Assembly: GCA_963774955.1 (NCBI GenBank)
Contig: CAVZGV010000006.1
Location: 159,224 to 223,223 of the forward strand
Length of the DNA stretch: 64,000 nt
Reading direction: 5' to 3'
Source of the DNA: Candidatus Falkowbacteria bacterium
GTDB taxonomy: Bacteria > Patescibacteriota > Patescibacteriia > CAIXNZ01
Position numbers and translations under genes: made by a program. The stretch's first letter is position 1. Each line of letters begins with the position of its first letter. Shown here one piece after another: positions 1,245 to 22,642 of this stretch. Under the pieces are notes generated by a model. That model had not been told where the DNA came from, searched no databases, and saw only the letters and a program-made list of their open reading frames with translations.

Positions 1245-3668
1245 TTATATAGTATTGGTCATCAAATGAGAATACGGAGGTCTGTTCTTATACCGTTTAA
1301 TGGCCAAAGCAATAATTTCTTCCAAAAATTCGCCGTAATCTAAACCGGTTAATTTCGCGACTTCGGGCACGCAATTGCCCATATTGATGGACGGATTAGG
1401 ATTTAATTCCAAAACATAAGGATTATCATCCTTGTCCACGCGAATTTCTACCCGGCCATAATCATGGCAATCTAAAATATTATAGGTATCAAGCGCAATT
1501 TCACCCAGTAATGTTTCTAATTTTTTATTAATGTTTTTGGCCGGACGCTGGACAACGATGCCGGCTTTTTCAGGCGTCACATCCGGAGCAAATTTAATAT
1601 CATGAGTATAAATATGCCATTGTCCCTGAGCCATCTCTTTAAAAATTGACCGTGATAACGGCAAAACTTTCAAATCATCCTCCTCACTCCCCAAGATGGA
1701 AACGTCATATTCATCACCTTCAATATACTCTTCAATCAAAGCCGGACTACCCAGATCAACAATGACTTTTTTCAATTGCTTATGCAATTCTTCGATATTA
1801 GAAACGACAGACTCATTAGTTATGCCGATGGAATTGTCAGTATTAGATGGCTTCACAATCAACGGAAAGCGCAAATTAGGATTTATTTCATCATCCATGG
1901 AATAAATATAATCCCATTTAGGCGTAGGAATCCCGTGAAAAGACAATAATTTTTTAACCCTAATTTTATCAATACACAAACTTAAAGTCGAAGGATTAGA
2001 CCCTGTATAAGGTATTTGCAAAATATCATACAAAGCCGCGGCATGAGGTTCTAACAATGAAGAATCATTAATTCGTTCACAAACATTAAAAACCAAATCA
2101 ACATCACTGCTTTTTAGATCGTTATAAACCTTGTCAACATTATTAAAATCAAAGAAAGAAGTTTTATAGCCTTTGGCCTGCAAAGTTTTCTCAATATTTT
2201 TACCCACATCCATCAGCTCATGACCGACCAGATTTTCCGTATCTTCATACATATTACAAGCAATGCCAATGTGCAGTTTTTTCATCTGATTCTTGGTAAC
2301 TCGCCTGATCTTTTCAATTTTAGCGGCCCGGACAAATAAATTAGCAGCAATAGCGGCATGAGAAAACTTATTTTTCCTGGAAGTCTTACCGATTGACGAT
2401 TCAGGCGCAAACTTGGCAATTTCATATCTGATTTCTTTCAGAGCATTTTTCATATTATCCTGGGCATCAAGTAAGCTGTATCCGGAAACAGTGATCCAAC
2501 CTAAATTGTCATAGCCTTCAGGCGGGGCCAAAACCGGATCCCCAATTTCCTTATAGAAATGCATTTCCCCGACTGAAGACCATTTTTCAATCTCATAATT
2601 AATATTGGCGGAGATAAGCACGCCTGAATAATCAGGTCGGAAATCCTGGCCGATAATGTACTTGAGGGGAATTGACGGTTTTTTTATTTTTATAAAATAG
2701 CCCAAAGCGATCATAACCGCATATTCAATCAAATCAACACCCCAACAGCCCTTTATATAGGAATAAACATAATCACCGCCCATGCGCAGATTAATTTCAA
2801 TCGGCACAGGACCTAACGGAGTTGATTTGGCTTCCCAGTGAACCAGACCGTTTTGCAAGCCAAGTTTTTCCAGGGTTTCTTCGGCCTGTTCAAATAATTC
2901 CTGCTGTTTACTTGTTGGCAGACTTGAAGGGATAGATTGGCCGACTTCTACAAAAAAAGGTTCCTGAGTCTGAAAATTGTCGGAAATTGACCAGAATTTA
3001 ATTTTGCCGTTTTGGATAATAATATCAATATCAACTTCATCACCGTCAATATATTCTTCCACAAAAATATCCAGACCGTCAGCCAAAGCACTTTCAGTAC
3101 TGGTGGAAATATTTTTCTTAATGTAGTTATAAGTATTAATCAAATCATCCTTACTGTTTACTTTGATAACATAAGCGCTGGAAGCACCAAAAGCCGGCTT
3201 GATCACCACCGGAAACTTAAAATCTTCGGGCAAACTCTGGATCTCAGCCAGACTTTTTATAAGCAGATGCTTCGGGGTGGCGATGCCGTTTTCTTGGCAA
3301 AATTCCCTGAATAAATATTTATTTCTGACCCGCCTGGCAATATTAAAAGGAATGCCGATCCAATTGAATTTGTCGGCAATTTTAGAAGTCAGCAAAACAT
3401 CATCTTCCCAAAAAGTCACCACGCCGTTAATTTTCACTTCGGCATTATTGGCGATAAATTCCTTAATGGCATTAATACATTCGGTTTGGTTGGTATTATC
3501 AGCCAAAATCCAATGATCGACATAAGACGCGGCCCAATTTTTTTCCTTATTGAGACAGACGACTTTTAAACCCATTTTTTTTAATTTCTGCAAAATAAAA
3601 CGTTTTTTAAACGACCCGGTGTTAACCAATAAAATAGTTTTATCTGCGAAGCTGTTTCCGTTTTTCAT
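1245..3668 (-). CDS. Two-domain ATP-grasp ligase (N-terminal ATP-grasp plus C-terminal D-Ala-D-Ala-ligase-like ATP-grasp)
   Basis: 807 aa. The C-terminal half carries Ddl-like motifs (LYDILQIPYTGSNPSTLSLCIDKIRVKKLL ... LIVKPSNTDNSIGIT ... EEYIEGDEYDVSILG). The N-terminal half has a second ATP-grasp fold (FPVVIKPAFGASSAYV ... EEYIDGDEVDIDII). Confidence 0.6.
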   Translation of the reverse strand: MKNGNSFADKTILLVNTGSFKKRFILQKLKKMGLKVVCLNKEKNWAASYVDHWILADNTNQTECINAIKEFIANNAEVKINGVVTFWEDDVLLTSKIADKFNWIGIPFNIARRVRNKYLFREFCQENGIATPKHLLIKSLAEIQSLPEDFKFPVVIKPAFGASSAYVIKVNSKDDLINTYNYIKKNISTSTESALADGLDIFVEEYIDGDEVDIDIIIQNGKIKFWSISDNFQTQEPFFVEVGQSIPSSLPTSKQQELFEQAEETLEKLGLQNGLVHWEAKSTPLGPVPIEINLRMGGDYVYSYIKGCWGVDLIEYAVMIALGYFIKIKKPSIPLKYIIGQDFRPDYSGVLISANINYEIEKWSSVGEMHFYKEIGDPVLAPPEGYDNLGWITVSGYSLLDAQDNMKNALKEIRYEIAKFAPESSIGKTSRKNKFSHAAIAANLFVRAAKIEKIRRVTKNQMKKLHIGIACNMYEDTENLVGHELMDVGKNIEKTLQAKGYKTSFFDFNNVDKVYNDLKSSDVDLVFNVCERINDSSLLEPHAAALYDILQIPYTGSNPSTLSLCIDKIRVKKLLSFHGIPTPKWDYIYSMDDEINPNLRFPLIVKPSNTDNSIGITNESVVSNIEELHKQLKKVIVDLGSPALIEEYIEGDEYDVSILGSEEDDLKVLPLSRSIFKEMAQGQWHIYTHDIKFAPDVTPEKAGIVVQRPAKNINKKLETLLGEIALDTYNILDCHDYGRVEIRVDKDDNPYVLELNPNPSINMGNCVPEVAKLTGLDYGEFLEEIIALAIKRYKNRPPYSHLMTNTI

Positions 3669-16775: not shown

Positions 16776-17390
16776 ATGGATTTAAGGCCCATTCTTAAAC
16801 CCTATCTAAAAGGCGAACTAGTCACCATTTGGACAATTTGCCCGGTAACATCCTGGGAACATTTTCAAAAAGTCGGCCTGATCAAGGCTGATGGCCGCCG
16901 CGCCATGAAGAGTTACCGCGAAGCCTATCATTGGCTGATCGAGCAAATGGTAAAAAAAATACCAGGTCATAAACCTGGTCAATTCCCCACCTGGGCCTGG
17001 TATTATCCCCGCCCCGACCTACGCCACATAGCGCATTTAGCCACAGGGACCAAAGGGATATTGCTAACCTGCAAAGTCCCCGGCCAAAGAATGCTGCTGT
17101 CTGACTTTGGCGCCTGGCACCATGTGCTTAACCAATGGTATTTGCCGCTGACCAAAGAAGAAGATGATGCAGCCGACGAGGAAGAACGAGGCTGGTACAA
17201 ACTGCCAAATATCAGCCAAAAATACTGGCAGTTGCGCCTGGAAAAAAACATGCCCAGCTGGCAGCGTATCTTCGATCTGCAGGCTCTCAATAAATCAAAA
17301 CTGCTTGGTCCGGTTGAACAGATCCAAGCGACTGTTTCTTACATCAGACTGGACGAGGTGGTAAAAGTTACACCTTTTACTGCCCGCTAA
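16776..17390 (+). CDS. Hypothetical protein (GC-elevated, no recognised domain)
   Basis: 204 aa, about 50% GC against an AT-rich flank. Followed by an intrinsic terminator. Confidence 0.5.
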   Translation: MDLRPILKPYLKGELVTIWTICPVTSWEHFQKVGLIKADGRRAMKSYREAYHWLIEQMVKKIPGHKPGQFPTWAWYYPRPDLRHIAHLATGTKGILLTCKVPGQRMLLSDFGAWHHVLNQWYLPLTKEEDDAADEEERGWYKLPNISQKYWQLRLEKNMPSWQRIFDLQALNKSKLLGPVEQIQATVSYIRLDEVVKVTPFTAR

Positions 17391-17413
17391 GAACCCTCCG
17401 GGGTTCTTTTTTA
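17391..17413. terminator. Rho-independent terminator (gaaccctccggggttc plus T6), likely bidirectional
   Basis: Perfect 6-bp GC stem with a T-run. Lies between two convergent genes. Confidence 0.7.
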
Positions 17414-17447
17414 TATCAAAAAAGAGGACGATGCCCTCTTTATAATG

Positions 17448-18404
17448 CTAGTTTAAAAGCTCTATAGCCTGCCAGTTAAATTTGAATAACCCTTTCCGAC
17501 CAAATGGCTTAATAATCCCATAGTAGCTTGGGATATTTCTAAAATTCAATTTCTGAAAAATACGCCGCATATTCATTCCAGATAATTTCCTGTCATAAGA
17601 ATAAATAATACTCCCTAAAAAATGCAATCCTTGCTCTGCCTTGATAATTATATCATTTTTGAGGTTTATATTCAGGTTAAGACGAGTATTTAAAAAATTT
17701 ACAGCCAAATTCCTAAGTTCTCCTGCCCTCTCTTTACTCCCAGCCAAGATTATAAAATCGTCTCCGTATCTTAAATAAGCCATTGGCTTTAATATATTTT
17801 TAACATAGCGGTCAAATTCATTCAAATAAATATTGGCGAAAATCTGGCTGGTCAAATTGCCGATGGGCATTCCCCCGTTATTGCCCAAATCATAACTTAT
17901 AATCACCTTGGCAATTAAATTAAAACTGAACTTATCTTTAATTCTTAATTTAATAATATCTAATAAAATTTCCTGGCCCACAGAATCAAAGAACTTCTTA
18001 ATGTCAGAACGCCAGACATAACTATCAGGATATTGGCGTAAAAATGATTGTGTTCTTTTAATGGCCTTATGCAATCCTTTGCCTTTTCGGCATGACCAAG
18101 CATCATAAATAAAAGTTTTATCGTAAATCTCCACCAGATAGTCATAAATCAGCCGATGAACAATTTTATCGCGTAACGGCGCGACCGAAATCGTCCGTTT
18201 CTTATTATCAGTCACCTCAAAATATCTGTAATTGCCCGGTTGATAATTGTCAGTTATCAGCTCTTCATGAAGCTTAAACAATTCCGGCTCCAGATTATAT
18301 TTAAACTCATCAAATTCATAAGTCCGCTTTTTGCCTTTTTGGTATTCGCCAAAACAGCGCCATAAATTTGCTACACTGATGTCCATGGAACCATATCCGG
18401 TCAT
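17448..18404 (-). CDS. Diversity-generating retroelement reverse transcriptase
   Basis: RT motifs 1-7 are present (RTISVAPLRDKIVHRLIY, DIKKFFDSV, YLRYGDDFIIL, GLHFLGSII). Motif 4 reads PIGNLTSQIFANIYL, the [I/L/V]GxxxSQ form typical of DGR RTs rather than the QGxxxSP of group II intron or retron RTs. Adjacent Avd, TR and VRs support the call. Confidence 0.85.
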   Translation of the reverse strand: MTGYGSMDISVANLWRCFGEYQKGKKRTYEFDEFKYNLEPELFKLHEELITDNYQPGNYRYFEVTDNKKRTISVAPLRDKIVHRLIYDYLVEIYDKTFIYDAWSCRKGKGLHKAIKRTQSFLRQYPDSYVWRSDIKKFFDSVGQEILLDIIKLRIKDKFSFNLIAKVIISYDLGNNGGMPIGNLTSQIFANIYLNEFDRYVKNILKPMAYLRYGDDFIILAGSKERAGELRNLAVNFLNTRLNLNINLKNDIIIKAEQGLHFLGSIIYSYDRKLSGMNMRRIFQKLNFRNIPSYYGIIKPFGRKGLFKFNWQAIELLN

Positions 18405-18729
18405 AAATTTAATTTACGAGGTTTATAAGCAGATTATAGACCTTGACAGCCGGCTGACTAAAAGGTGGCGCTATTCTCTAGGCGTGAGTCTGGAAAACAG
18501 CATTTTATCATGTCTGGAACTCTTGATCATGGCCAAGAACGCGCCCAAGCCGCTCAAAGCGCCCTATCTGTACAAGGCAGACGCGCAATTGGAAATAATC
18601 CGCCTCAAACTGCGATTGCTTCTGGAGCTGAAACTGGCGAATGAAACTAAACTTTTCCAATTGCAGAGCCAATTGCAGGAAATAGGGCGCCAAGTCGGCG
18701 GCTGGCTGAAATCAGCGCAGAATAAATAA
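18379..18729 (+). CDS. avd: DGR accessory variability determinant (Avd; four-helix-bundle, bAvd-like)
   Basis: About 117 aa. Its C-terminal half (YKADAQLEIIRLKLRLLLELK ... EIGRQVGGWLKS) resembles my recollection of Bordetella phage bAvd (YAADAGLAMLRFWLRFL ... EVGRILGSWIARV). Divergent from the RT, with start codons overlapping at CCATGG. Confidence 0.65.
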   Translation: MSMEPYPVINLIYEVYKQIIDLDSRLTKRWRYSLGVSLENSILSCLELLIMAKNAPKPLKAPYLYKADAQLEIIRLKLRLLLELKLANETKLFQLQSQLQEIGRQVGGWLKSAQNK

Positions 18730-18842
18730 AACTTTACCGAGGCCCGAACCGAATTATTGTCATTATGATTGTCTGGATTATTCCAATTCAAGTTGAACTG
18801 ATGATTATTCCGATTCCAATTGCCAAACGGCACAGCGCCCTT
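18727..18842 (-). repeat. DGR template repeat (TR)
   Basis: 113-bp block colinear with the 3' ends of the three target genes. In the sense (minus) orientation it is Asn/AAY-codon rich (NWNRNNHQFNLNWNNPDNHNDNN). All 41 mismatches to VR2/VR3 fall on TR adenines. Confidence 0.85.
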
Positions 18843-18963
18843 GATTGATTTAGCTTGTCCATATACCTTAGATCGTCGCAACGATCCTCGGTCCATTGGC
18901 TTGGATTTTTCATCCACAGTAGCCCGGGAGGGCGAAGGTGGATAAGCTAAACTCAAACGTAAA

Positions 18964-18993
18964 GTTATATTTATTATTTTGCGCAAACGACAA
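18964..18993 (-). promoter_or_regulatory. Candidate sigma70-like promoter for the TR (and RT) transcript (TTGTCG-18-TATAAC on the minus strand), overlapped by a TTTGCGCAAA palindrome
   Basis: Hexamers read on the minus strand. A 10-bp perfect palindrome at 18978..18987 lies in the spacer. A second copy is at 19028..19037. Confidence 0.3.
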
Positions 18994-19143
18994 TGCAGTC
19001 TTAAAAACTGATCATTGCGATTTTTGATTTGCGCAAATTTACGGTAGCTGAATCTAAGTTCAGCATGTATTCACCGTATTACTGATTTAAAAATACAAAG
19101 ACAAAATATAAAAGCCTCAAAACCAAAACCCAAAGTCCAAATC

Positions 19144-20283
19144 TTAAAACTTTACCGAGGCCCGAACCGAACCACCGTCACTATGAGAGCCTGGATAACG
19201 CCAATCCAAGCGGAACTGACGATTAAACCGATTCCAACGGCCAAACGGCACAGCGCCTTTCCCTTTAAAATATGCCCCAGCATTCCAGCAGCCTTTGCCC
19301 TGTCCGTCCCAATCATCTATCATTTGATCATGATGTTGCAGCTGCTGTATTAAATATATCAGCTGCGCCTCGGGCGTGGTAAATTGTTCATCAGCGTACT
19401 GCTCCTCAGTCTGAATCTTGGCCAGATATTGTTCAGGGCTTTGGCCTGCGTCAAACTGTTGCCTGCCTTCTATGTCTTTTCCCTTGCCTTTTTCCGGTAA
19501 ATCCGGCAGGTCTTCAATAAACATCACTTGCCAACCTACGCTCTCCGAGCTTCGGTTGGCAAGCCAGCCGGATAAAAGTTCTGACTTAGTCTGACCTCCA
19601 TGGTTATCTTTATCAAACTTTTTAACTCCATAAACCAGATTACCGTTGATATCAGCATCTTTGTATTCATCATTTACAAAAACCGGCTGATTCTCATCTA
19701 GTTCCAACTTTGTGCCGTCTGTAGCCAGCAATTTGCCCTCTTTATGCTTTTTGATTATTAACTTCCCAGCTTTCTCTGCAATTTCACTTAGCTTCATGCC
19801 AATCGGCACCAAAAGCAACTGGGTAAAGCCCTGCTCTCTTTTTTTATCCAGCATTTCGGCTTTGGCTTCCATTCGATCCTTTATCTCCTGATAGCTCGGA
19901 ATCAGCTGTTCTTGCCCGAGAATATCAATCATGCCCCATTGGCCGTTTTTAAACTCCTGCAAGATGCCAACTTGTTTGAGTGTTTCCACTTGTTGGTCAT
20001 ATTGTTCCTGCAAATTAAATTCCTGTTCAAGATTTTCGCGTTTTAACTTACGTCCGTGAATTGTTTCCATTTTTGCCTTTACCTGCTGCAGTAAATTTAA
20101 AGCAGCCGACAAATTGCCGGCTTTTTCTGCATCGACGGCTTTGGTTACCAGTTCATTAATTTCCTGGCGCTGCTCATCAGTCATTTCCATTTCCTTAGCC
20201 TGCAACAAACTGCGTCTGGCCATTTCCATGACCGGCGCTTCGGGAGTTTGTAGTTTTTCCATTCCTTTTTTCATAAATTTCAT
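19144..20283 (-). CDS. DGR variable (target) protein, paralog 2; C-type-lectin-like C-terminal VR
   Basis: 379 aa. C-terminus ...GCWNAGAYFKGKGAVPFGRWNRFNRQFRLDWRYPGSHSDGGSVRASVKF. VR differs from TR only at TR adenines. Confidence 0.85.
   Translation of the reverse strand: MKFMKKGMEKLQTPEAPVMEMARRSLLQAKEMEMTDEQRQEINELVTKAVDAEKAGNLSAALNLLQQVKAKMETIHGRKLKRENLEQEFNLQEQYDQQVETLKQVGILQEFKNGQWGMIDILGQEQLIPSYQEIKDRMEAKAEMLDKKREQGFTQLLLVPIGMKLSEIAEKAGKLIIKKHKEGKLLATDGTKLELDENQPVFVNDEYKDADINGNLVYGVKKFDKDNHGGQTKSELLSGWLANRSSESVGWQVMFIEDLPDLPEKGKGKDIEGRQQFDAGQSPEQYLAKIQTEEQYADEQFTTPEAQLIYLIQQLQHHDQMIDDWDGQGKGCWNAGAYFKGKGAVPFGRWNRFNRQFRLDWRYPGSHSDGGSVRASVKF
19145..19257 (-). repeat. DGR variable repeat VR2
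   Basis: 19 of 19 substitutions versus TR sit at TR adenine positions. The 3' 27 bp (ggttcgggcctcggtaaagtttta, IMH-like) is identical to TR. Confidence 0.85.
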
Positions 20284-20284
20284 T

Positions 20285-21415
20285 TGGGCGAAAACGCCCG
20301 TTGTCTTTTGTCATTTCGGGTAAATGGTACCCAAACTGGTTGGTGAAAAGACAAAATTTCTGTTAAGGTTAGATTAAAATTGATACTTAATATTAAACTG
20401 GTTCAATATTATGAAAAAAAACTTGTCCAGATTGCTCCTCTAATAATGTAATTTTTTATGGCCAAAATGATTGCGGACGGCAAAGATTCAAGTGCGGGAA
20501 GTGCAATCGACTGTTTGTTTTCCGCAATGCAAAGAATAAATTGAACCGCCAACTTAAATGGTTTAAATTATGGATAGCCGAAGGATATTCAGTCAGGCAA
20601 ATTTCGGGAATTAGCCACCACAGCAGGAAAACAATTAAGGGAATAATCAGTTATTGGCTCGCAAAATTACCGAGCCCTTTAAACGTACAAACCGGAATAA
20701 AATATCTGCTTTTTGATGGTACATATTTCCACCGCATGAATTGCTTAATGCTGGCAATGAATAATGCCAATGGCCAAATCATCACAAATAGGTATTTAAG
20801 GCGTGAAAATTACTTTGCCGCCCTTGAGCTGTTCAAGGAGCTGTCAGATAAAGGAATCAAGCCTACAGCCATTACAATTGACGGTAATACTAGCGTAATT
20901 AGAGCCTTAAAGGACGCATGGCCGAATATCGTAATACAGCGCTGTATCGTTCATATCCAGAGGCAGGGATTATCTTGGTTAAGAATGCGTCCTAAACTGG
21001 AGCCATCGATACAATTACGCAAGATATTACTGGCGGTAACAAACATTAACAATTATCCGGAAAAACATAAATTTATTTCAGATTTTCATAAGTGGGAAAG
21101 AAAATTCGGCAAAGCGGTTTCAAGACTCGACTGTAACCACAAAGTCTTTAGTGATTTGCAAAGAACTAGAAGCTTAGTAATTCATGCCTTGCCCGACATG
21201 TTCCATTATTTAGATAATCCGAATATCGCCAAATCAACGAATAAACTTGAAGGATATTTTTCTCGTTTAAAAAGATTGTATCGCCAGCATTCAGGATTAA
21301 GCAAAGATAACAGAAACAATTACATTAGCTGGTATATTCATTTCAAAAATCATTAATTCACCAACCAGTTTGGACCCCTTATACCCGGTATGACAACGGG
21401 CGTTTTCGCCCTCGC
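20285..21415 (+). mobile_element. IS1595-family-like insertion sequence, copy 2 (complete, with 20-bp outer inverted repeats gggcgaaaacgcccgttgtc / gacaacgggcgttttcgccc)
   Basis: Core identical to copy 1. Starts 2 bp upstream of the target-2 start codon. Confidence 0.8.
20541..21356 (+). CDS. DDE transposase, IS1595/ISXO2-like (identical to 15765..16580)
   Basis: 100% nucleotide identity to copy 1, with the same upstream zinc-ribbon frame and A8 run (20414..20421). Confidence 0.75.
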   Translation: MNRQLKWFKLWIAEGYSVRQISGISHHSRKTIKGIISYWLAKLPSPLNVQTGIKYLLFDGTYFHRMNCLMLAMNNANGQIITNRYLRRENYFAALELFKELSDKGIKPTAITIDGNTSVIRALKDAWPNIVIQRCIVHIQRQGLSWLRMRPKLEPSIQLRKILLAVTNINNYPEKHKFISDFHKWERKFGKAVSRLDCNHKVFSDLQRTRSLVIHALPDMFHYLDNPNIAKSTNKLEGYFSRLKRLYRQHSGLSKDNRNNYISWYIHFKNH

Positions 21416-21496
21416 AAGTATTCACCGTATTATTAATTTTTAAAAAATCAAATCCGAAAACAATAAAACAATATCTCAAGTCCCAAACTCCAAATC

Positions 21497-22642
21497 TTAA
21501 AACTTTACCGAGGCCCGAACCGAAGCAAGGTCATAAGGAGCGTCTGGAGAACGCCAAGCCAAGTAGAACTGATGAAGATCCCGAACCCAAAGGCCAAACG
21601 GCACAGCGCCTTGCCCTTTAAAATATGCCCCAGCATTCCAGCAGCCTTTGCCCTGTCCGTCCCAATCATCTATCATTTGATCATGATGTTGCAGCTGCTG
21701 TATTAAATATATCAGCTGCGCCTCGGGCGTGGTAAATTGTTCATCAGCGTACTGCTCCTCAGTCTGAATCTTGGCCAGATATTGTTCAGGGCTTTGGCCT
21801 GCGTCAAACTGTTGCCTGCCTTCTATGTCTTTTCCCTTGCCTTTTTCCGGTAAATCCGGCAGGTCTTCAATAAACATGACTTGCCAACCTACGCTCTCCG
21901 AGCTTCGGTTGGCAAGCCAGCCGGATAAAAGTTCTGACTTAGTCTGACCTCCATGGTTATCTTTATCAAACTTTTTAACTCCATACACCAGATCACCATT
22001 TATATCAGCGTCTTTATATATTTCATCCACAAAAACAGGTTGTGGCTTGCCATTTTCATCTAATTTGATTTCCAGCTTGGCTCCGTCTGTTCCCAGCAAT
22101 TTGCCCTCTTTATGCTTTTTGATTATTAACTTCCCAGCTTTCTCTGCAATTTCACTTAGCTTCATGCCAATCGGCACCAAAAGCAACTGGGTAAAGCCCT
22201 GCTCTCTTTTTTTATCCAGCATTTCGGCCTTGGCTTCCATTCGTTTTTTAATCTCTTCATAGCTGGGTATTGGCTGTTCATTGCCTAAAATATCTACAAT
22301 TCCCCAGTTACCGTTTTTGAATTCCTGCAGAATACCTACTTCTTTTAAAGTCTGAAATTGTTCTTCGTATTGTTCCTTTAAATTTAATTCTTGTTCCAAA
22401 TTTTCTTTGGCTACATTCGCTTTTTGCAACTTTTCCATTTTTTTCTTGACCTGATTTAAAAGTTTTATAGCTCCGGCCAAATCTTTGGCATTTTCCTTGG
22501 CAACAGCCTGATCAATCAGTTCCATTATTTCCGCTTTTTGTTCAGCAGTCATTGCCATTTCCTTAACCGAACCCAAAACCTGCCTGGCCATGGCCAGAGC
22601 CGATGCTTCGGAATTTTTTACTTGTTCCATTTTTCTCGACAT
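21497..22642 (-). CDS. DGR variable (target) protein, paralog 3; C-type-lectin-like C-terminal VR
   Basis: 381 aa. C-terminus ...GCWNAGAYFKGQGAVPFGLWVRDLHQFYLAWRSPDAPYDLASVRASVKF. Lies directly downstream of mraY. Confidence 0.85.
   Translation of the reverse strand: MSRKMEQVKNSEASALAMARQVLGSVKEMAMTAEQKAEIMELIDQAVAKENAKDLAGAIKLLNQVKKKMEKLQKANVAKENLEQELNLKEQYEEQFQTLKEVGILQEFKNGNWGIVDILGNEQPIPSYEEIKKRMEAKAEMLDKKREQGFTQLLLVPIGMKLSEIAEKAGKLIIKKHKEGKLLGTDGAKLEIKLDENGKPQPVFVDEIYKDADINGDLVYGVKKFDKDNHGGQTKSELLSGWLANRSSESVGWQVMFIEDLPDLPEKGKGKDIEGRQQFDAGQSPEQYLAKIQTEEQYADEQFTTPEAQLIYLIQQLQHHDQMIDDWDGQGKGCWNAGAYFKGQGAVPFGLWVRDLHQFYLAWRSPDAPYDLASVRASVKF
21498..21610 (-). repeat. DGR variable repeat VR3
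   Basis: 22 of 22 substitutions versus TR sit at TR adenine positions. Confidence 0.85.

Follow-up and report, generated by a model that had tools for sequence, protein, structure and literature searches.

The mechanistic work on DGR reverse transcription that we know of all comes from one phage element, in which the essential RNA lies 3' of the template. The locus described here raises the question of where such RNA would lie in a DGR whose interval between the template repeat (TR) and the reverse transcriptase (RT) gene is occupied by the accessory gene avd on the opposite strand. It is part of a 64,000-nt stretch of DNA from a Candidatus Falkowbacteria bacterium (the window), and a first-pass annotation had regarded its architecture as unusual, implying unconventional transcription and perhaps antisense regulation or a priming region embedded in the spacer. 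The locus comprises:

17421..17441, minus strand: terminator-like hairpin 3' of the RT stop codon
17448..18404, minus strand: DGR reverse transcriptase gene, 318 aa from ATG 18404 (alternative start 18386, 312 aa); Pfam RVT_1, E=1.3e-15
18385..18729, plus strand: avd accessory gene, 114 aa, with a further in-frame ATG at 18379 and a TAA stop at 18727-18729; Pfam bAvd PF22296
18727..18842, minus strand: TR, defined by alignment with VR1 and VR2, with mismatches at TR adenines
19144..20283, minus strand: target gene 1, with VR1 at 19145-19260
21497..22642, minus strand: target gene 2 (a paralog), with VR2 at 21498-21613

With an RT, a TR, two VRs and an Avd homolog, the locus is a genuine DGR. 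The RT, the only one in the window, carries the DGR-type motifs IGNLTSQ and YGDD, which are invariant in the homolog alignment. The majority of its 3849 homologs are from CPR bacteria (hosts include Parcubacteria, Peregrinibacteria, Gracilibacteria, and Saccharibacteria), and both the best homologs and the 80 related loci that were compared are from Patescibacteria/CPR MAGs. The plus-strand ORF between TR and RT is, as the first-pass annotation had it, a true Avd homolog: it matches Pfam bAvd PF22296 at 51.5 bits (cutoff 40; E=1.6e-13), and its N-terminus (M-E-P-Y-P-V-I-N) fits the family consensus M-[DE]-x-L-P-I-I-N. An HMM of the avd family matches 18385..18729 (E=8e-56) and nothing else in the window, so that there is no conventional avd elsewhere in it. 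Mismatches to TR fall at TR adenines in 19 of 20 cases for VR1 and in all 22 for VR2; the two VRs are not identical to each other, and each reaches the stop codon of its own target ORF, at the 3' end of the gene. The last 27 nt (TTCGGTTCGGGCCTCGGTAAAGTTTTA) are the same in TR, VR1, and VR2 and form an IMH-like 3' segment. RT, avd, and both target ORFs are intact.

The geometry described earlier was confirmed by measurement: TR and RT are both on the minus strand with antisense avd between them, the end of TR is 322 nt from the RT start (about 320 nt had been given), and the avd stop codon adjoins the TR 3' end, falling within the last 3 nt of TR/VR homology. The view that this is unusual did not survive a comparison of gene order. 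The layout is the published Architecture B3, TR-(avd)-RT, which according to Wu et al. 2018 (NAR 46:11, PMC5758913) makes up 90% of their CPR set; here, too, an opposite-strand avd separates TR from RT and there is no further accessory gene. TR, avd, and RT are ordered and oriented as in B3 DGRs, the upstream target gene with a 3' VR and the CPR hosts are likewise shared, and at the level of architecture there is no difference. Among the 80 relatives fetched, avd is divergent from and adjacent to RT in approximately 65; relatives at 40-79% RT identity retain the geometry, including the 342-nt length of avd, 35 of 53 loci have a TR end no more than 6 nt from the stop codon of avd, and VR is separated from TR by 260-340 nt. 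Judged by this conservation, the arrangement is far beyond chance. The locus is therefore an ordinary CPR-type DGR in the standard published B3 layout, and its architecture adds nothing new. A literature search for opposite-orientation avd in CPR DGRs gave only Wu et al. 2018 and Table S3 of Handa et al. (bioRxiv 10.1101/2023.10.23.563531), and the available part of the former makes no mention of the 20-nt 5' overlap, of the TR end on the avd stop, or of an upstream structured RNA.

The overlap itself had been described as two start codons lying back to back within a CCATGG palindrome. Both ATGs and the site exist (CCATGG at 18383-18388, the plus-strand avd ATG at 18385-18387, and the second Met codon of RT as the complement of 18384-18386), but the most likely start of the RT is the ATG further upstream, at 18404, since homologs at 72-79% identity begin MTGYGS-I-DIS, with a conserved MTGYGS and with Ile replacing the second Met. 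The overlap of the coding 5' ends is therefore 20 nt long rather than 2:

18385..18404: avd and RT coding sequences overlapping head to head at their 5' ends, 20 nt, with CCATGG (18383-18388)

An in-frame RT ATG lies 17-23 nt upstream of the avd ATG in 50 of 65 relatives, and the overlap is most commonly 20 nt (30 loci), or else 17 nt (13 loci) or 23 nt (7 loci). Initiation at the second Met (18386), with start codons that overlap by 2 nt, is the database gene call: the identical database protein (P0001) has 312 aa and begins MDISV. CCATGG occurs in only five of the 65 loci, and three of these (L038, L043, and L050) have no in-frame upstream ATG. Against the Ile codon in close homologs and the upstream ATG in most relatives, we consider this start unlikely. 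The CCATGG site is incidental, the back-to-back ATGs stemming from an Ile-to-Met substitution. A Shine-Dalgarno motif is absent at either RT ATG, which is uninformative because only 7 of the 52 long ORFs in the window have one.

The VR-TR gap (18843-19077, approximately 235 nt) contains a covarying structured RNA, with the following elements:

18725..18736, minus strand: TR-side segment of helix P0 (the TR 3' end with the avd stop codon, plus 2 further nt), which pairs with the upstream primer-like strand
18960..18971, minus strand: primer-like strand AAUAUAACUUUA, ending in the conserved adenosine 18960
18832..18973, minus strand: core structured RNA, P1-P3, from pairing in the MAFFT alignment, RNAalifold, and covariance model R1
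18944-18955 with 18846-18856, minus strand: P1, 11 bp and one bulge, ending 3 nt before TR
18912-18943, minus strand: P2 hairpin, part of the core RNA
18893-18911, minus strand: A-run and single strand, part of the core RNA
18870-18887, minus strand: P3 hairpin with a UGCG loop, part of the core RNA
18976..19038, minus strand: SL-B, a long stem-loop adjoining the primer-like strand on its 5' side, from per-sequence MFE folds and RNAalifold
19041..19077, minus strand: SL-A (ACGGUG-AAUA...-hairpin-CUACCGU), with an outer and an inner helix from RNAalifold

In the window, 11 of the 12 positions of P0 are paired. Across 40 loci, 77.6% of cells pair, compared with 33-47% when the partner is slid along, and the covariation score of 0.38 compares with at most 0.165 and is reached by none of 500 shuffles. 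The conserved adenosine forms an A-U pair in 34 of 39 sequences and, by analogy with the phage element, is a candidate priming nucleotide; the nucleotide that follows it likewise complements TR in most loci, which leaves the precise site of priming uncertain. In a MAFFT alignment of P1-P3, paired cells make up 88% of the total, as opposed to 33-47% after sliding, and both partners change in 25 of the 26 pairs; P1 is 95.6% paired with 10 of its 11 pairs covarying, and both P1 and P3 were predicted independently by RNAalifold. Covariance model R1 has a single match in the window, at 91 bits, and one match per locus in 57 loci (17 of them outside the seed alignment), always directly 5' of TR. Both helices of SL-A were recovered by RNAalifold with compensatory changes, and its GGUGAAUA / CUACCG motif is kept in 43 loci; the same two-helix stem-loop is found at the position of SL-B by per-sequence MFE in most loci, with the inner helix recovered by RNAalifold in a 16-sequence subset. 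On a raw MAFFT alignment of 38 loci, RNAalifold returned 0 pairs for the 100 nt 5' of the primer-like strand because that alignment is poor; subset alignment gave the SL-A helices and the inner helix of SL-B. An Rfam search of both strands of 17300-19400 (E<=1) matched nothing, and no description of an RNA arrangement 5' of TR in CPR DGRs was found in the searchable literature.

The closest comparison is with the Bordetella phage BPP-1 DGR, the RNA anatomy of which is taken from Handa et al. (bioRxiv 10.1101/2023.10.23.563531) and Handa et al. 2018 (PMC6182149). Both systems have an RT, Avd, adenine-specific transfer from TR to VR, and an invariant 3' TR/VR segment, and their RNAs present like elements in like order: a primer strand (here primer-like) whose final nucleotide is A and which base-pairs with the 3' end of TR; a gap of 2-3 unpaired nt; a duplex of 11 bp, interrupted by one unpaired nt, whose second strand lies immediately upstream of TR; and then a stem-loop, adenosines, a single-stranded stretch, and a long stem-loop, with UNCG-type loops in both. 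In BPP-1, however, avd precedes TR in the same orientation and the RNA elements are all found 3' of TR, in a non-coding spacer, whereas here the covarying strand that pairs with the TR 3' end and terminates in a conserved A (the next nucleotide also pairing) is 5' of TR together with the other elements, as in a circular permutation; the stop duplex closes locally, and antisense avd fills the TR-RT gap. There is no sequence similarity between the two RNAs, and functions are assigned here by analogy.

We propose that the RNA in the VR-TR gap performs the role of the Bordetella phage spacer, shifted 5' of TR. The primer-like strand would pair with the TR 3' end (P0) and the conserved A18960 would prime, which would give the upstream RNA a priming function; after 2-3 unpaired nt, P1 (11 bp, one bulge, ending 3 nt before TR) would halt cDNA synthesis. 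P2, the A-run, the single strand, and the UGCG-capped P3 would then correspond, in order, to the phage stop stem-loop, the A-minor adenosines, the thumb ring, and the RT-binding stem-loop. Some relatives have TR/VR differences at TR adenines within the segment paired in P0, and cDNA synthesis could thus begin further 3' than this model says. A strict version, which places the cDNA start exactly one nt to the 5' side of the U facing A18960, is weakened by these A-site differences and is retained as inference only. The primer-like strand in relatives is also complementary to the VR 3' end, and where TR and VR differ in the first seven positions it agrees with VR in 39 cases versus TR in 17; this hints at a role for an RNA strand in recognition or rewriting of the homing site (IMH).

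The topology is also retron-like, in that P0 encloses P1-P3 and TR. As in retron msr-msd RNA (PMC8867640 and general background), a 5' strand pairs with the template 3' end, like a2/a1, and terminates at a candidate branch nucleotide, and stem-loops, the template, and a downstream RT gene follow. Unlike a retron, the RT belongs to the DGR clade (by its DGR hallmarks and DGR RT neighbors), the conserved nucleotide is A rather than the G whose 2'-OH yields branched msDNA, the product would home into VRs rather than persist as msDNA, and Avd is required in DGRs. Taken as a whole, the locus is a B3 CPR-type DGR of the form target(VR) - structured RNA - TR - (opposite-strand avd) - RT, probably with the 5' RNA as the spacer equivalent. 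The more general proposal, that in TR-(avd)-RT DGRs of CPR the priming and stop RNA is a retron-like module 5' of TR, a circular permutation of the phage spacer, and that the TR-RT interval is functionally empty and can therefore be occupied by avd, is put forward tentatively, at slightly less than an even chance.

The principal competing location for the RNA is the one known from the phage, 3' of TR, such that avd would be dual-use, its antisense strand supplying an Avd-binding stem-loop, a primer, and one strand of the stop duplex. This is how Handa et al. tabulate CPR DGRs, and it fits the suggestion of a spacer-embedded priming region made on first reading. Their Table S3 predicts stem-loops 13-36 nt downstream of TR in many CPR DGRs, along with upstream/downstream duplexes for many, and flags overlap with the Avd gene; TR adjoins avd in most relatives; and a 7-bp hairpin occupies nt 10-28 after TR in the window:

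18702..18720, minus strand: local hairpin CUGCGCUGAUUUCAGCCAG from an MFE fold, just 3' of TR in antisense avd; lineage-specific

The relevance of this hairpin is uncertain, and its position matches the Avd-binding stem-loops that Handa et al. predict in other CPR DGRs. It is common only to the closest relative (L001), the hairpins of other loci being in different registers, and folding the 60 nt that follow TR by MFE in 60 loci gave no hairpin in common. RNAalifold returned 0 consensus pairs both for the first 70 nt after TR (36 loci), where an Avd-binding stem-loop directly downstream of TR would lie, and for the whole antisense-avd spacer (30 loci). Neither was a phage-type stop duplex across TR detected: RNAduplex energies for the 60 nt preceding TR paired with the 200 nt following it equal those of shuffles (median z = -0.15), and the segment just upstream of TR instead pairs further upstream, as P1. 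In three relatives (L050, L068, and L070) the RNA-TR unit has no avd downstream, and all three retain the head-to-head avd/RT pair; in L068 and L050 the unit is found downstream of RT on the opposite strand, its TR end adjoining the RT stop, and in L070 TR is 665 nt away from avd. In Table S3 of Handa et al., a Peregrinibacteria DGR with an RT of the same family as here is among those without confident downstream elements. A functional spacer RNA 3' of TR is thus improbable, and a priming region within the spacer is not borne out, the covarying RNA and the strand that pairs with the TR 3' end being upstream of TR. We infer that the approximately 320-nt TR-RT spacer is dispensable and that avd fills the gap without a cis-acting RNA function.

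Alternatively, the head-to-head avd/RT pair and antisense avd could have been selected for regulation, with transcriptional interference or an RNA duplex coupling or limiting the levels of Avd and RT and hence limiting mutagenesis. The first-pass annotation is right that neither gene is left intergenic room for a promoter; the avd and RT 5' ends overlap by about 20 nt and the TR end sits on the avd stop. At least two transcription units are needed, as Wu et al. 2018 (PMC5758913) also state for DGRs whose components lie on both strands. Avd would come from its own plus-strand transcript, with a promoter inside the RT 5' coding region, and the RT would be translated either from a TR transcript that reads through or from one that starts at a promoter inside avd. 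The regulatory explanation draws on this necessary placement of either promoter within the opposite gene, on the 17-23 nt overlap being kept even where TR is elsewhere, and on a sigma-70-like TAGTCA-16-TATAAT inside avd, 29 nt upstream of the RT ATG. However, that TATAAT is conserved only in a minority of loci, a promoter scan of 17300-19300 gave 3 sites against 5.6 expected in shuffles (none in the VR1-TR gap), and gene compaction in very small genomes accounts for the overlap equally well; we regard selection for regulation as doubtful. It is compatible with the explanation preferred here. The RNA-TR unit has no convincing promoter in the window. In relatives it appears, from sequence motifs, to be its own transcription unit: in L019 a terminator is followed by TTGCAA-16-TACAAT, ending 7 nt before SL-A, and in 26 of 43 loci SL-A is preceded, at a distance of 9-12 nt, by a TAnnnT hexamer. 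The cassette might also be a decaying, IS-disrupted relic with a geometry that has no current function. Two identical IS copies flank the RT-avd-TR-target1 unit, and one of them, 5 nt away from the start of target gene 1 on the upstream side, breaks the sequence downstream of VR2; current activity of the cassette is therefore not assured. Set against the intact ORFs, TR/VR differences that are nearly all at adenines, VRs that differ mutually, and RNA elements that all score well against the family model (91 bits), a relic is highly improbable.

The potential importance of the locus lies in the RNA 5' of TR, not in the architecture. If many natural DGRs carry these same functional parts 5' of the template, predictions limited to 40 nt upstream and 100 nt downstream of TR miss them, and minimal engineered DGRs derived from such small systems should keep the 235 nt upstream of TR and can omit the spacer. 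The relation between the primer-like strand and the VR end would, if true, be a testable lead on how the cDNA finds its target.

The window encodes the following components of a diversity-generating retroelement (DGR), where TR is the template repeat and VR1 and VR2 are the variable repeats of target genes 1 and 2:

17448..18404, minus strand: reverse transcriptase (RT) gene (RVT_1, E=1.3e-15)
ending at 18729, plus strand: avd ORF, 114-116 aa (Pfam bAvd, above the curated cutoff, E=1.6e-13)
18727..18842, minus strand: TR, 116 nt, alignable to VR1 and VR2 below
19145..19260: VR1, at the 3' end of a paralogous target ORF
21498..21613: VR2, at the 3' end of a paralogous target ORF

TR adenines account for 19/20 and 22/22 of the differences between the copy at 18727..18842 and the other two copies, and the last 27 nt are the same in all three; thus, the element is a true DGR that has a single TR and a pair of VRs. 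In the RT, the DGR-type motifs IGNLTSQ and YGDD are invariant among homologs, the best of which occur in Parcubacteria, Peregrinibacteria, Gracilibacteria, and further CPR genomes. The bAvd match confirms the first-pass annotation of the plus-strand ORF as an Avd homolog, and neither a second avd (family HMM) nor a second RT (phmmer) was found in the 64 kb. A 140-aa minus-strand ORF (18564-18986) covering the 3' end of avd along with TR and the structured RNA described below is almost certainly not a gene. Two IS copies (15512-~16620 and 20288-~21396; 99-100% identical, direct orientation), each encoding a 271-aa Mutator-family transposase, bracket the DUF3841 gene, RT, avd, TR, RNA, and target gene 1 in a composite-transposon-like arrangement; terminal inverted repeats are at 20308-20347 and 21357-21396, and the second copy begins 5 nt upstream of the target gene 1 start codon.

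The inverted avd had been regarded as unusual, a description that the comparative data contradict. The cassette classes of Wu et al. (2018; PMC5758913) include B3, TR-(avd)-RT, in which the reverse strand encodes avd. Of 80 related loci taken from a collection with one genome per species (RT identity 40-79%), ~65 have an avd that is divergent from and overlaps the RT start, with an almost invariant length of 342 nt. Where a TR/VR pair was detectable, the TR/VR homology ends ≤6 nt from the avd stop codon in 35 of 53 loci, and the VR-to-TR gap is typically 260-340 nt. The window DGR is therefore a typical member of the known B3 class.

The RT and avd ATGs had also been placed back to back within the palindrome CCATGG. 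The site and its coordinates are correct (CCATGG, 18383-18388; Avd ATG, 18385-18387; second RT Met, complement of 18384-18386), and an identical database protein of 312 aa begins at that Met; however, an RT start at this position is at odds with the relatives. Four homologs that cover the RT N-terminus (72-79% identity) open with MTGYGS-I-DIS, in which Ile replaces the second Met, so the upstream ATG is the only start available to them. Across the 65 loci of the same layout, the usual sequence is TCC ATA GAT (RT S-I-D), with avd ATG GA. on the opposite strand; CCATGG without an upstream ATG occurs in only three, and the avd/RT coding overlap, counted from the first in-frame RT ATG, is 20 nt long at 30 loci, while 13 others have 17 nt and 7 have 23 nt. 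The avd start at 18385, rather than 18379, aligns with the family consensus M-[DE]-x-L-P-I-I-N. Based on these alignments, RT most likely starts at 18404 and avd at 18385, with a 20-nt head-to-head overlap; the palindrome would then be a by-product of the Ile-to-Met change, and the CCATGG site is incidental. A Shine-Dalgarno motif is absent at both starts, which is uninformative because only 7/52 window ORFs of ≥150 aa have one; given this scarcity and the A/T-rich upstream regions, Shine-Dalgarno-independent initiation is the main mode in this organism. In two Peribacteria loci (L013 and L020; 4460-4495 in each), a perfect 12-bp hairpin within the RT gene (GTGCTATCGTCG-TAG-ACGATAGCAC) carries an in-frame TAG in its loop; this interrupted form is conserved, as the proteins differ elsewhere, and the TAG could be a programmed read-through or regulatory feature.

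It had further been proposed that the TR-RT spacer, which here is antisense avd, might embed a priming region. In the Bordetella phage DGR, a 140-nt spacer 3' of TR supplies an Avd-binding stem-loop, a primer strand whose last residue is the priming nucleotide A56, one of the two stop-duplex strands, a short stem-loop, A-minor adenosines, a thumb ring, and an RT-binding stem-loop (Handa et al., bioRxiv 10.1101/2023.10.23.563531). Nothing conserved was detected downstream of TR in the window's family, for which such a region is not supported: MFE folds of related loci have no common hairpin, and RNAalifold predicts 0 pairs for both the first 70 nt after TR (36 loci) and the whole spacer (30 loci). 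Spacer conservation has a 3-nt periodicity, as Avd coding would give, and the local hairpin at 18702-18720 is common only to the closest relative. In Table S3 of Handa et al., for which a downstream search was applied to CPR DGRs and Avd overlap was flagged, a Peregrinibacteria DGR of the window's RT family is among those without confident elements.

A structured RNA is located 5' of TR, comprising two stem-loops (SL-A and SL-B), a primer-like strand, and three helices (P1-P3):

19077-19041, minus strand: SL-A
19038-18976, minus strand: SL-B
18971-18960, minus strand: primer-like strand AAUAUAACUUUA, then CG
18955-18944, minus strand: P1 5' strand
18943-18912, minus strand: P2 hairpin
18911-18893, minus strand: GAAAAA and single strand
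18887-18870, minus strand: P3 hairpin, UGCG loop
18856-18846, minus strand: P1 3' strand, with TR starting three nt later

Across 39 loci aligned by plain MAFFT, pairing in P1-P3 reaches 88%, versus 33-47% with the 3' partners slid; both sides change in 25/26 pairs, and the score was reached by 0/500 shuffles. P1 (11 bp, one bulged nucleotide) is 95.6% paired. RNAalifold independently predicts P1 and P3, and SL-A and the SL-B inner helix emerged both from RNAalifold run on a subset of loci and from folding the sequences one by one. The covariance model built from this alignment (R1) has a single match in the window (18832..18973, 91 bits) and one match each in 57 of the 80 loci (17 of them outside the seed alignment), always directly 5' of TR and on its strand. 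The RNA has no match in Rfam, and no description of it was found in the accessible literature (Paul et al., 2017, not covered). Five more distant loci (L067, L069, L074, L075, and L077; Saccharibacteria, Dormiibacterota), with avd ~2 kb downstream of RT and no R1 match, look like a different architecture, perhaps with a different RNA. The 5' half of SL-A (19063-19093, containing ACGGUGAAUA) is repeated at 21414-21444, downstream of VR2, where the IS end cuts the copy off; either part of the RNA module was copied along with the target gene, or the IS deleted the remainder.

The order of elements can be set against that of the phage RNA:

Bordetella phage: stop strand 1 - TR - Avd stem-loop - primer strand ending in A56 - 2 nt - stop strand 2 (11 bp, 1 unpaired nt) - short stem-loop - AA - single-stranded thumb ring - RT-binding stem-loop
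Window: primer strand ending in A - 2-3 nt - stop strand (P1 5', 11 bp, 1 unpaired nt) - P2 stem-loop - A-run - single strand - P3 stem-loop, UNCG-type loop - stop strand (P1 3') - TR

The phage Avd stem-loop is 3' of TR, whereas SL-A and SL-B are 5' of the primer-like strand, where a permutation would put an Avd stem-loop. The topology matches that of retron msr-msd RNA, in which a 5' strand paired to the template 3' end is followed by a branch nucleotide, stem-loops, template, and RT gene. Because of these likenesses, an analogy backed by covariation, the upstream RNA would be the functional equivalent of the spacer.

The primer-like strand pairs at 11/12 positions with 18736-18725, which comprises the last TR nucleotides, the avd stop codon (18727-18729, inside the final 3 nt of TR/VR homology), and two more nt. 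With the conserved A as anchor on one side and the avd stop codon on the other, the 12 pairs of this helix (P0) are 77.6% paired across 40 loci, versus 33-47% when slid, with a covariation score of 0.38 (≤0.165 when slid) and 81 cells changed on both sides (≤30 when slid); at one pair, for example, 19 sequences have C-G and 18 have U-A. This pairing would explain why TR ends on the avd stop codon, and the functional 3' end of the RNA appears to overlap the last 5 nt of avd, with nothing further downstream needed.

Relatives also have complementarity to TR at the nucleotide that follows the conserved A, and in some of them the paired segment includes TR adenines that are not shared with VR. At TR/VR differences within the first seven paired positions, the strand complement matches VR in 39 instances and TR in 17 (in locus L042, TR is TGAGAGATT, and both VR and the strand complement are TGAGGGTTT); beyond the homology, across the avd stop codon, it matches TR in 93 instances and VR in 26. 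Random adenine mutagenesis would not give rise to this pattern. The primer-like strand may have the VR end (homing site) as a second pairing partner, or it may serve as the template from which the VR end is copied. The effect is invisible in the window, where TR equals VR over these positions; loci with a VR-siding strand include L042, L025, L015, L061, and L063. Immediately 5' of the duplex, 11/12 cases have A in TR and C in VR, the C being the complement of the next RNA nucleotide; random adenine mutagenesis does not account for this either.

DGR components on different strands require at least two transcription units, as stated in the cassette survey of Wu et al. (2018; PMC5758913). Downstream of the target gene, relatives often have a GC hairpin and T-run of the rho-independent terminator type, then a -10-like TAnnnT hexamer 9-12 nt before SL-A (26/43 loci), on which basis the RNA-TR unit probably has its own promoter in relatives. 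In locus L019, a terminator (3274-3293) precedes TTGCAA-16-TACAAT, which ends at 3326, 7 nt before SL-A (scan); locus L006 (region 3300-3358) has a terminator and no promoter-like match upstream of SL-A. No clear promoter for the RNA-TR unit was identified in the window. Transcription of avd has to begin inside the RT 5' coding region, and RT could be translated from TR-transcript read-through or from a promoter inside avd, where TAGTCA-16-TATAAT (18460-18433) is only partly conserved; such promoter-like sites are no more frequent than in shuffles. Putative antisense interplay between avd mRNA and the read-through transcript is possible. Two terminator-like hairpins lie back to back (17389-17441) between RT and the convergent DUF3841 gene (16776-17390, plus strand).

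In two loci, the RNA-TR unit is downstream of RT on the opposite strand (L050, 4915-5145; L068, 3590-3815), where the 3' end of TR directly adjoins the RT stop codon, and in L070 it is at 1615-1910, with TR 665 nt upstream of avd. The avd/RT head-to-head overlap is kept in all three, which indicates that the RNA-TR unit and the avd/RT pair are separable modules and provides independent support for antisense avd being dispensable to the RNA-TR unit. As a structure, the retron-like upstream RNA has good support, and its role in this family, judged by analogy, is plausible.
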